Of a stretch of DNA of 64,000 nucleotides, positions 51,507 to 55,334 are shown in pieces. Where the stretch lies: the sequence record OR352945.1. One strand, 5' to 3'. How positions within the stretch are numbered: the first letter of the stretch is position 1; each line of letters begins with the position of its first letter. The notes beneath the pieces were generated by a model, which did no database searches, had not been told where the DNA came from, and saw only the letters and a program-made list of their open reading frames with translations. Origin of the DNA: Escherichia phage AV115. The translations under genes and the position numbers were made by a program.

Positions 51507-52820
51507 TCAAATAAAATGGACGTCAAACCGACCACGAGTCGTGCCGACATACAATAACTGTTTAGCTAATTCTGAATCAGCATAATGGATACACGGTGTA
51601 TAAACAAAGGCCGTGTCAACAGACATACCCTGGGCCTTATGGAAGGTTGATACTGGTAGTGCCTTCACCTTAGTGAACATACGTTTAGCATCCCAGAATT
51701 CGCTCCATGGAGCTTTACCGCCTTTATTCCAGAATTTGTATGTTTCTGCGGTCTTAGCCAAAAACAAATTGAATTTATAAAGCTCTTCTTCAGAAGAAAT
51801 AACCTTTATATCTTCGCGGATGTATTCTTCATCATCCCCATATGTTTCTACTGTAAGATTCCAGTATCGTATCATATATTCGCCCGAAACACCACGTGCT
51901 TTAACGAATGTAGACGTTTCTACAGCATCTCGAATACGAACGAATTGCCCGTTATTGAAAAGCATTTCAGTCATATTTTTGCCATCTAGCTTGTATGTCT
52001 TAGTAAATGGCTCTTGTAGAACAATGACTTCATCTTTAATAAATGGCTTTTCTGTTTCAAGAAGTTTTCGGCGAATAATTGAATTTAACTTGTCCACCGA
52101 CTTATTTGTGAATGCCATCATTCGATTTTCGAAAAGGTCTTCAGGAGTTTTAACGACGTTAAAATAGTTCATCATATACGATTTAAGGTCTGTATATCCA
52201 TGAACACCGTGCCCATCAACTACTTTATCGTAAATCCATTTGCCATTACGAATATCAGTCGCAACATCAATAATTGGTGCATTGCTACGTTTAACTTCTG
52301 TAAGGTTGCATTGCACGAAGTCTTTGTGAGTGAAGAAAGGACTTAGATACGCAGTTGATTCGCCTGGGTCTACCGGTCGAATCTGGCATCGGTCACCAAT
52401 TCCAATTACTGTACACCATTTAGGGATACTAGCTAACATTATTTTAAACAGAGAACGGTCGCACATTGACGCTTCATCAAATAACAGTACACGACACAAG
52501 GCTAAGTCGGGAACCTTTTTCTGTTCAAACAATACGTTTTCTTCGTATGTAGTTGGGTTGATTTTAAGAATGCTATGAATAGTCGATGCTTCTTGACCAG
52601 CAAGTTTGCTTAGAACCTTTTTAGCGGCATGTGTTGGTGCTGCTAAAATAATACCTGATTCTCCAGAAGAAATAAGAGCTTCAACGATAAATCTAGTAAG
52701 GGTTGTTTTACCTGTACCGGCAGGCCCATTAATAGTTACGTGATGTTTCTTTTCTTTAATAGCTTTCATAACAACGTTGAAGGCGTTTTTCTGGCCTTCA
52801 GTCAAATCATCAAATGTCAT
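51507..52820 (-). CDS. dda: Dda DNA helicase (SF1B)
   Basis: 437 aa; near-identical to recalled T4 Dda including GPAGTGKTT Walker A. Confidence 0.9.
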   Translation of the reverse strand: MTFDDLTEGQKNAFNVVMKAIKEKKHHVTINGPAGTGKTTLTRFIVEALISSGESGIILAAPTHAAKKVLSKLAGQEASTIHSILKINPTTYEENVLFEQKKVPDLALCRVLLFDEASMCDRSLFKIMLASIPKWCTVIGIGDRCQIRPVDPGESTAYLSPFFTHKDFVQCNLTEVKRSNAPIIDVATDIRNGKWIYDKVVDGHGVHGYTDLKSYMMNYFNVVKTPEDLFENRMMAFTNKSVDKLNSIIRRKLLETEKPFIKDEVIVLQEPFTKTYKLDGKNMTEMLFNNGQFVRIRDAVETSTFVKARGVSGEYMIRYWNLTVETYGDDEEYIREDIKVISSEEELYKFNLFLAKTAETYKFWNKGGKAPWSEFWDAKRMFTKVKALPVSTFHKAQGMSVDTAFVYTPCIHYADSELAKQLLYVGTTRGRFDVHFI

Positions 52821-53130: not shown

Positions 53131-53436
53131 TTAACCTTTAATCAGTTGGAATAATGATGCGCTAAGTGGTAAGCCACGTTTCAATTTTAATTTACCAATG
53201 AAACCAATCTTTTCAAAACGTTGCAGACCTTGGATAACTTTATCATATGTATCGAAAAGCGATTCAGCGTCAGTTAATTTAGTTTTAGTTTTCCAGTCAG
53301 AGCCTTTAAGAAGAACGTTGAGTTTAGTAAGTTCATGGCCTTCTGCTTGATGTGAGCCATTAATGCGTGCTTTCAAAGCAACAATTCTAAGTTTAGACTC
53401 ATTAGATAAAGGTTGATTTTTCATCATGTTCGCCAT
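53131..53436 (-). CDS. hypothetical protein (101 aa)
   Basis: ORF only. Confidence 0.4.
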   Translation of the reverse strand: MANMMKNQPLSNESKLRIVALKARINGSHQAEGHELTKLNVLLKGSDWKTKTKLTDAESLFDTYDKVIQGLQRFEKIGFIGKLKLKRGLPLSASLFQLIKG

Positions 53437-53606
53437 ATGCTTAACACGGTTTTCACGTTTTGCTCGGATTTTTAAAATAGTACCATAAACCTTTTTAATT
53501 TGGGCCCATTTCTTCTCGTCGAGATTAAGTTTCTCTACTTTACGAGCAGAAGGATTAGCGATACGTCTTGCAATAGCATCACGTTTCTCAATAAGTTCTT
53601 CTAATG

Positions 53607-53876
53607 TTAAATCAGAACGAGCCGTGTTATATTTTTCTTAACTGGGATAACATTACCTTTAATGTAGCCTATATCATTATTAAAACGTTCTAAGGATAAT
53701 TTCTCACCTTCAACAGAGTTATTAAAAGATTCACCTGAGTAAGCGCAGACCTTTTGATCAAGAATGTTTTTAAGGTAATTAAAGTCTAAGTTAAAATCCT
53801 TAGAGCGTCTCTTCGCAGAAGCTCTGGTGTGGTCAAGACGACGATTGATTTTGTTAATTTTATTATTTGATAACAT
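53607..53876 (-). CDS. hypothetical protein (89 aa), possible HNH-like fold
   Basis: Motif SLERFNNDIGYIKGNVIPV resembles a degenerate HNH element. Confidence 0.35.
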   Translation of the reverse strand: MLSNNKINKINRRLDHTRASAKRRSKDFNLDFNYLKNILDQKVCAYSGESFNNSVEGEKLSLERFNNDIGYIKGNVIPVKKNITRLVLI

Positions 53877-54029
53877 AATATTTTCCTCTGTCTTACGGAC
53901 GTTAAGGTCATTTAGCTGATAAGCTTATAATATCATGCCCTCAGGTAGTGTACACTCTTTTTTCGTAAAATGCTTTAATTTTTTATGTGTTATAATGGTT
54001 CTGAGTTCCATCCGGTTATTCCAATTCAG

Positions 54030-54638
54030 TCAGTAACTGACAATAGACAGATTCCAGATTGTATAACGTCCATCTTGAATAATAGAATCTACACGCAGTG
54101 TAGTCCCTATAGGGAGCATAAATTCACATTCGTCAGATATAAGTCTAGCATTAGACCGTCTTGTCGCTTCAGGGAAAGCTCCATTGAACTCACAAGATGG
54201 CGCAGCCAGAATCATGTTAAGCATATGTTCACGGAAGTTGAAAGCAAATGGTGCATCTTTGATGCAGAACATATTAAATGTTCCGTAAAAATTATACGAA
54301 GCAAAGTTACGTGCTACACCGAACACTGGGCTGAAGCTCATTACTCTGTCAAATTTAATAATACTACCAATGCCTTTATCATCGAGTGTGGCCATAGTTT
54401 TCTTAGAGATTCCACGATACATTGTCTCAGGAACAGAAGACGTCCAATTTCTACGAACGATTGAACTTAACTCCTGTTGAATACAGTCTGGCTTGTTTTC
54501 CATACACTGCCAAAGGATGCTTTGTTCATTATCGTTGAATTGACTATCAATTTCGTACTGCAATACATCTTGATATTCGGGGTTTTGAGCACGACGAACC
54601 ATTTCTTCAATTTCACACTCGTTATACGGCATAAACAT
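54030..54638 (-). CDS. ADP-ribosyltransferase (ModA/ModB family)
   Basis: R-S-EXE triad context: YRG, SFS, ECEF; 202 aa. Confidence 0.75.
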   Translation of the reverse strand: MFMPYNECEIEEMVRRAQNPEYQDVLQYEIDSQFNDNEQSILWQCMENKPDCIQQELSSIVRRNWTSSVPETMYRGISKKTMATLDDKGIGSIIKFDRVMSFSPVFGVARNFASYNFYGTFNMFCIKDAPFAFNFREHMLNMILAAPSCEFNGAFPEATRRSNARLISDECEFMLPIGTTLRVDSIIQDGRYTIWNLSIVSY

Positions 54639-54695
54639 TTAGGTTTCTCCTGTGGTTGATAAAGGTATAATATCATCATCGGAAGAGTTTGTACA

Positions 54696-55277
54696 CTAAA
54701 AATTCAACATTTTCAAATGAATGATTTTGTATAATCGAGATAAAGGGTCATATTCTAACTCTTCAATTTTCACAATCTCAAATCTAGAGATACCTGAAAC
54801 CATGTACTCTTGTTCAGATTCAATCATATCTAGGACATCAACACGCGTTTCTTCCATAACATGCTTAGGGTTCTTTCCGGCGAGTACAATGTTAACCATG
54901 TTTTGGTAGTAATCAAAAATGAATGGAGCATTCCTGAGACTAAGAATAGTGTACGTCTGATACTCCCAACTCCCAGAGAATTGACGAGCTGTACTGAAAT
55001 CAGTTGTGAACGATGTTACTCGTCCAGGAGACCAATGGCATCCAACAGAAAGAAGTGAAAGACGTTCTACTTCTTCTGGAGTTACACCACGGTAGAGTTC
55101 TACCGGTACTGTAGAAGTCATATGCTTACGAACAAGATGGTCTAATTCATAGTGGAAATCCGGGTCTTCCTTAGAATCAGTGCAAGCCCAGAGAATGTTT
55201 TGTTCTTGGCGGGTGAATTTGCTATCAATCAGATTTGTTAGGTATTCGCGTTCTTGAAGTTCAGATTGACATGTCAT
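54696..55277 (-). CDS. ADP-ribosyltransferase (ModA/ModB family), tandem paralogue
   Basis: R-S-EXE triad context: YRG, TSFT, SEQEY; 193 aa. Confidence 0.75.
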   Translation of the reverse strand: MTCQSELQEREYLTNLIDSKFTRQEQNILWACTDSKEDPDFHYELDHLVRKHMTSTVPVELYRGVTPEEVERLSLLSVGCHWSPGRVTSFTTDFSTARQFSGSWEYQTYTILSLRNAPFIFDYYQNMVNIVLAGKNPKHVMEETRVDVLDMIESEQEYMVSGISRFEIVKIEELEYDPLSRLYKIIHLKMLNF

Positions 55278-55302: not shown

Positions 55303-55334
55303 CTATCATAACACGAGAGGAGGGAATGTAAACT
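55303..55334 (-). promoter_or_regulatory. T4-type early promoter upstream of modB-like gene
   Basis: Minus strand GTTTAC, 17 nt, TATGAT. Confidence 0.5.

Follow-up and report, generated by a model that had tools for sequence, protein, structure and literature searches.

The genes modA and modB have been characterised in phage T4 since the 1990s, and T4 carries a further ADP-ribosyltransferase (ART), Alt, a 682-aa protein that is packaged in the head and injected from the virion. ModA is an ART that modifies Arg265 of both alpha subunits of RNA polymerase (PMC2988021). ModB is an arginine-specific ART that modifies ribosomal protein S1 (rS1), EF-Tu and trigger factor and, in addition, RNAylates rS1 and rL2 with NAD-capped RNA (PMC10468400). 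A catalytically dead ModB has been made by mutating R73 (PMC10468400), and a preprint that cites Tiemann 2004 describes R73 and E173 as indispensable to NAD binding and to catalysis (bioRxiv 10.1101/2025.07.11.664405). Arginine-specific ARTs are generally recognised by a glutamate at position -2 of the catalytic glutamate, which makes up the E-x-E motif (PMC3102197). Functional labels for Mod proteins are copied from genus to genus without evidence. Moreover, now that T4 ModB has been shown to join NAD-capped RNA to proteins of the ribosome, it is worth learning which homologues in other T4-like genera have this activity as well, a question for the family as a whole and not for any single locus.

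The locus considered here lies in a 64,000-nt stretch of Escherichia phage AV115 (OR352945.1), hereafter the window, which belongs to Mosigvirus, the RB69 group of T4-type coliphages; the analysis established the structure of the genes, the family they belong to, the conservation of their catalytic residues, their predicted fold and the synteny of the locus. The segment from 54030 to 55277 consists of exactly two minus-strand ORFs, both opening with ATG and separated by 57 nt: ORF1 (54030..54638, 202 aa), the srd-proximal copy in the position of T4 modA, and ORF2 (54696..55277, 193 aa), the srd-distal copy in the position of T4 modB. In the window, dda (51507-52820) is followed by dda.1, srd, ORF1 and ORF2, and then by two small ORFs and a homologue of mrh. 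The pair thus has its place in the early-gene cluster, between srd and modA.2/mrh, and lies on the early-gene strand. The order dda-dda.1-srd-mod-mod-modA.2-mrh is common to T4, RB69 and JK45, and that of AV109 matches as well. Searched with the Mod profile, the window yielded no third Mod-like ORF and none resembling Alt, and there is no ORF of Alt size at the window start.

At close range the locus is anything but novel. The 2.8 kb around the pair is 99.8% identical to the corresponding segments of Escherichia phages AV109, AV114 and AV118, with a few point substitutions relative to AV109 (six differences over the 2.8 kb), and identity of at least 90% is found in about 150 other phage genomes. 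The Mosigvirus relatives with the same mod genes at the same locus include AV109, vB_EQ1, JK45, APCEc01 and SHSML-52-1, among others. ORF1 is 94% identical to RB69 modA (NP_861708), whose annotated start lies two codons downstream of the possible ORF1 start (MPYNE as against MFMPYNE), and it is 100% identical to a protein of phage vB_EQ1 annotated as “RNA polymerase ADP-ribosylase.” ORF2 differs from RB69 modB (NP_861709) at about 4 of its 193 residues, as read from the alignment blocks, and is 99% identical to a “ribosyltransferase” of phage AV112. Since the RB69 reference genome labels these same two genes modA and modB, the pair was already known; it is real, ordinary, and already annotated in RB69 and about 150 related genomes. 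Its remaining value is comparative, and as a discovery it counts for little.

A sequence-only reading of the window had proposed that this segment holds a tandem pair of ADP-ribosyltransferase paralogues, each with an R-S-EXE arrangement, consistent with T4 ModA and ModB, and all of this was borne out; the one point that it left unstated is the minus-strand location of both genes. The two adjacent proteins share 34% identity over 147 aa in BLASTP (E 7e-28), a similarity that is clearly far above chance and that, as judged from sequence, makes them paralogues. In ORF1 the arginine motif is Y74-R75-G76, the serine motif S101-F-S103 (S-x-S) and the glutamate motif E170-C-E172 (ECE); in ORF2 the counterparts are Y62-R63-G64, T88-S89-F90-T91 (TSFT) and E155-Q-E157 (EQE). 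The codons were checked directly in the minus-strand sequence, as reverse complements of 54414-54416 for R75 and 54129-54131 and 54123-54125 for E170 and E172 of ORF1, and of 55089-55091 for R63 and 54813-54815 and 54807-54809 for E155 and E157 of ORF2.

For comparison, the T4 ModA and ModB proteins were taken from NC_000866. Both window proteins align with both T4 proteins from end to end, and all four are of single-domain size, around 200 aa (202 and 193 aa here, 200 and 207 aa in T4). Identity is low throughout: BLASTP gives ORF1 31% with ModA (E 3e-21, 74 bits) and 30% with ModB (E 1e-32, 103 bits), and gives ORF2 26% with ModA (E 6e-10, 43 bits) and 38% with ModB (E 3e-28, 92 bits). The catalytic columns are nevertheless kept. 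R73, G74, E171 and E173 of T4 ModB correspond to R72, G73, E163 and E165 of T4 ModA, to R75, G76, E170 and E172 of ORF1, and to R63, G64, E155 and E157 of ORF2. Among 14 aligned sequences from seven T4-like genera, R75, G76, S101, E170 and E172 (ORF1 numbering) are among the positions that never vary, and these same R, G, S, E and E columns are invariant in a 35-member family alignment too. The Mod proteins diverge fast, at 26-38% identity between Mosigvirus and T4, yet their catalytic core is retained. Loss of the catalytic arginine or glutamate, the finding that would have told against the proposal, did not occur in either copy: by sequence alignment R75/E172 and R63/E157 occupy the T4 columns.

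This bears directly on the possibility that one of the copies is a catalytically inactive pseudoenzyme or a decaying duplicate, with a binding role at most. Duplicated phage accessory genes are often lost. Nothing specific to this locus favours such a fate; in the T4-like phage ECML-134, modB is split into two CDSs. Here both ORFs are intact, and each keeps every invariant residue of the family, the R, G, S and E-x-E positions included; both proteins fold confidently in prediction, and about 150 Mosigvirus genomes have conserved both copies, with identities of 90% and above. We accordingly give an inactive copy almost no weight.

Profile searches lead to the same family. ORF1 (E 1e-37) and ORF2 (E 3.6e-38) both hit PHROG 832, “RNA polymerase ADP-ribosylase”; the profile has 1480 positions, of which the Mod proteins cover only about 1252-1440, the C-terminal catalytic part. 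Precomputed Pfam assignments place PF26816 on all homologues recovered from a large protein collection, many of which are labelled NAD--protein ADP-ribosyltransferase, ModA or ModB. Local scans of the Pfam-A and NCBIfam libraries returned no meaningful match for either ORF. Together with the BLASTP results, the aligned R-S-EXE residues, the predicted fold and the genomic slot, the PHROG match supports assignment of both proteins to the T4 ModA/ModB family, and nothing contradicts that membership. T4 Alt belongs to the same ART superfamily and appears to share PHROG 832, but each window protein amounts to a catalytic domain on its own, some 200 aa long. A virion-packaged ART of the Alt type, of about 680 aa and with an N-terminal packaging region, was considered and set aside for these ORFs, which have 193-202 aa and match the catalytic part of the profile only.

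The fold was predicted with AlphaFold2 on the 35-sequence alignment, and both models are of high confidence (pLDDT 94.2 and pTM 0.88 for ORF1; pLDDT 89.5 and pTM 0.84 for ORF2). In the ORF1 model R75 sits on strand 72-76, S101 on strand 100-103 with helix 106-113 following, and E172 immediately before strand 173-175; in both models the arginine lies on beta-1, the serine on a strand that leads into a helix, and the E-x-E motif runs into a strand. Foldseek against the PDB at E<=1e-3 returned 91 matches for ORF1 and 85 for ORF2, and all 50 of the matches listed for each model are ADP-ribosyltransferases, with probability 1.00 and TM-scores of 0.4-0.57. Among these listed matches are C3, iota toxin Ia, CDTa, VIP2, Vis, Certhrax, HopU1, XopAI and Tre1. 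Against predicted viral structures of phage ModA and ModB, the ORF1 model gives a TM-score of 0.85 and an rmsd of 1.7-2.9 A. Both proteins are therefore predicted to have an ARTC-type ADP-ribosyltransferase fold with the triad of R on beta-1, S on beta-2 and E-x-E before beta-5, where the equivalence of the catalytic residues is drawn from the sequence alignment and from secondary-structure position. By sequence the PDB offers less: phmmer searches of PDB sequences gave no match for ORF1 and only chance nucleophosmin matches for ORF2, the family profile has one marginal match, to the XopAI ART (E 0.13, over the E-x-E strand), and such searches, in line with the preprint cited above (bioRxiv 10.1101/2025.07.11.664405), found no solved structure of any Mod protein.

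With the ARTC toxins and effectors (C3, iota Ia/CDTa, Vis, Certhrax, HopU1, Tre1), then, the window proteins share the predicted catalytic fold, at Foldseek E values of about 1e-5, and the logic of R, S and E-x-E. They differ from them in sequence, with identities of 8-17% only, and in having no secretion, translocation or immunity partners; moreover, an N-terminal region of four helices is found only in the phage Mod family. The Mod profile also picks up ART domains that sit inside proteins of 1000-4285 aa, encoded in metagenomes as well as genomes and presumably polymorphic toxins. Through these very large proteins the phage Mod family is connected in sequence with the ART domains of bacterial toxins.

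Taken together, these results lead us to read the region, with a probability of about 0.93, as the two early mod genes of Mosigvirus, encoding single-domain ARTC-type (R-S-EXE, cholera-toxin-like) ADP-ribosyltransferases of about 200 aa that are predicted to act on arginines of host proteins. From homology to T4 we infer enzymatic activity, arginine specificity, timing of expression, identity of the targets and, with them, the following mechanism. Early in infection, host sigma-70 RNA polymerase would transcribe both genes, apparently each from an early promoter of its own. NAD+ would be bound through the beta-1 arginine (R75 in ORF1, R63 in ORF2) and the serine motif (S101, S89); the second glutamate of the E-x-E motif (E172, E157) would catalyse transfer of ADP-ribose, and the first (E170, E155) would steer it onto the side chains of arginines in host proteins. 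If T4 is a guide, the pair probably acts on Arg265 of RNA polymerase alpha and/or on components of the translation machinery such as rS1, EF-Tu and trigger factor, and one of the copies might also accept NAD-capped RNA as a substrate for RNAylation. In this way the enzymes would help the phage to reprogramme transcription and translation in its host. It is plausible, again by analogy, that the divergence between ORF1 and ORF2 reflects different host targets, as the sequence-only reading suggested.

The choice of target invites a different view, in which these ARTs are mainly counter-defence enzymes that act on host immunity proteins or on nucleic acids and have little to do with remodelling transcription and translation. 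Anti-defence ARTs do exist in phages, AcrIF11 being an example (PMC12421852), the distant profile matches include the ART domains of the very large toxin-like proteins, and the physiological role of T4 ModA is itself unclear, deletion of modA having little phenotype (PMC2988021). In none of our searches, however, was there a sequence link to AcrIF11 or to DNA ARTs of the DarT type, and for T4 ModA and ModB, which among characterised proteins are the closest relatives, the targets are established, in RNA polymerase and the ribosome (PMC2988021, PMC10468400). The pair, moreover, sits among modulators of host transcription: in the window these are srd and a homologue of mrh, and at the T4 locus srh is a further one. 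On this evidence a mainly counter-defensive role is improbable, and the modification of host transcription and translation proteins remains our reading of the pair.

Assigning the two copies to ModA and ModB is far less straightforward than assigning them to the family. ORF1 occupies the srd-proximal slot of T4 modA (NP_049635) and has its motifs (R72, E163 and E165 aligned), but the two are only 31% identical, and 26% for ORF2; T4 ModA, moreover, sits on a long branch and has SAS as its serine motif, as against SFS and SFT in the window proteins. T4 ModB (NP_049636) resembles the window proteins in family, size, R-S-EXE residues (R73, E171 and E173 aligned), predicted fold and genomic neighbourhood; it differs in its limited identity (30% with ORF1, 38% with ORF2), in a longer insert ahead of the E-x-E helix, and in showing no supported grouping with either window clade in neighbour-joining (NJ) trees. 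Isoelectric point and net charge do not discriminate between the copies, since all are acidic.

A reading contrary to simple positional orthology is that the duplication in Mosigvirus and Dhakavirus was independent of the one that gave T4 modA and modB, or else that all the copies diverged in star-like fashion from one ancestral mod gene; neither window copy would then correspond in function to T4 ModA, and the host proteins modified by the pair would differ in part from those that the T4 pair modifies. Several observations point this way. The best T4 match of both window proteins is ModB (103 versus 74 bits for ORF1, 92 versus 43 for ORF2), and a tblastn search of Tequatrovirus genomes with ORF1 likewise finds its best place in modB. 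Several T4-like genera have a single mod gene in the slot, between srd and the modA.2/dCTPase region: Winklervirus (Serratia phage X20), Jiaodavirus (Klebsiella phage vB_VIPKPNUMC01) and Krischvirus (Escherichia phage G2248). When scored with HMMs of the proximal and distal clades, the single-copy Winklervirus protein is nearly equal on both (173 and 169 bits) and lies far above either T4 protein (95 and 32 bits for ModA, 122 and 89 for ModB, which prefers the proximal clade only slightly).

The trees, which are distance-based NJ trees with bootstrap for 14 and 37 sequences, are clear at the tips and poor at the base. A proximal clade of Mosigvirus, Dhakavirus and Gaprivervirus is recovered at 99-100% bootstrap and a distal clade of Mosigvirus and Dhakavirus at 100%, with further subfamilies for T4 ModA, for T4 ModB and for the distal copy of Gaprivervirus, which thus falls in a different subfamily from the distal copy of Mosigvirus and Dhakavirus, as the independent or star-like origin would have it. 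All the nodes that join the Mod subfamilies have less than 50% bootstrap in both trees; since these are NJ trees only, such poor resolution is no evidence of independent duplication, even if it accords with a star-like history. Against independent origin stands the clear preference of T4 ModA for the srd-proximal clade (95 versus 32 bits), in keeping with a history in which position marks the orthologues and T4 ModA has evolved fast. Moreover, gene order and orientation are identical in all the genera with two mod genes (Tequatrovirus, Mosigvirus, Dhakavirus and Gaprivervirus).

As far as the sequences go, then, two histories are compatible with the data: orthology by position, with fast divergence, or a diversification from one ModB-like ancestor that was star-like or partly independent. 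An independent or star-like duplication, with no functional ModA in the pair, is possible, though we doubt it. The specific proposal that the Mosigvirus pair are ARTs independently diverged from a single ModB-like ancestor, and not simple ModA and ModB orthologues, we consider unlikely, and somewhat more so. Were it true, the label “modA = RNAP alpha R265” as transferred from T4 would be wrong for this group of phages, and the division of labour between the copies would be another, with different host targets, for example, or with a different copy doing the RNAylating. In any case, the reading of the pair as Mod-family ARTs holds under both histories.

The arrangement of the two genes also differs from that in T4, where modA and modB overlap by 4 nt; here a spacer of 57 nt, which holds a promoter-like site, separates the two, and the two-copy loci of Dhakavirus and Gaprivervirus have spacers of 44-54 nt. 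The site in the spacer, upstream of ORF1 on the minus strand (54667..54695), reads TGTACA-17-TATTAT with a TG extension, and the gene has a Shine-Dalgarno sequence, AGGAG, 8 nt before the ATG. Upstream of ORF2, also on the minus strand (55305..55332), there is a G-TTTACA-16-TATGAT match (10/12) with a TG extension, and GGAGG precedes the ATG; a third similar minus-strand match was found ahead of srd (53954-53927) in the consensus scan. These calls come from a scan with a sigma-70/T4-early-like consensus and are consensus matches only, and the region as a whole holds 11 promoter-like matches as against 12.4 +/- 3.1 in shuffled sequences, so that their number is not above expectation. At window position 54670 the -10 hexamer of the ORF1 match is TATTAT here and TACTAT in AV109.

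Three further observations concern the neighbourhood and its relatives. First, a 159-aa ORF on the plus strand (53985-54464) lies antisense to ORF1; it is annotated in no related record, and we rejected it as a gene, since it is most likely a by-product of the coding sequence on the opposite strand. Second, modB of Escherichia phage ECML-134, a Tequatrovirus, is recorded as two overlapping CDSs of 180 nt and 486 nt (1374-2004 of the locus compared), which suggests a frameshifted or decaying gene, or a sequencing error. Third, the homologue of srd, which encodes an anti-sigma factor and adjoins the mod pair (53131-53876, minus strand), is split by a 1-nt deletion at about 53631, within a homopolymer run that is T5 here and T6 in AV109 (plus strand). 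Codons 1-81 match AV109 Srd at 100% identity in one frame, and codons 84-248 do so in another. What remains is an N-terminal ORF of 89 aa (53607-53876) and an internal one of 101 aa (53131-53436), and the split is due either to a sequencing error in the homopolymer or to an inactivation in the very recent past.
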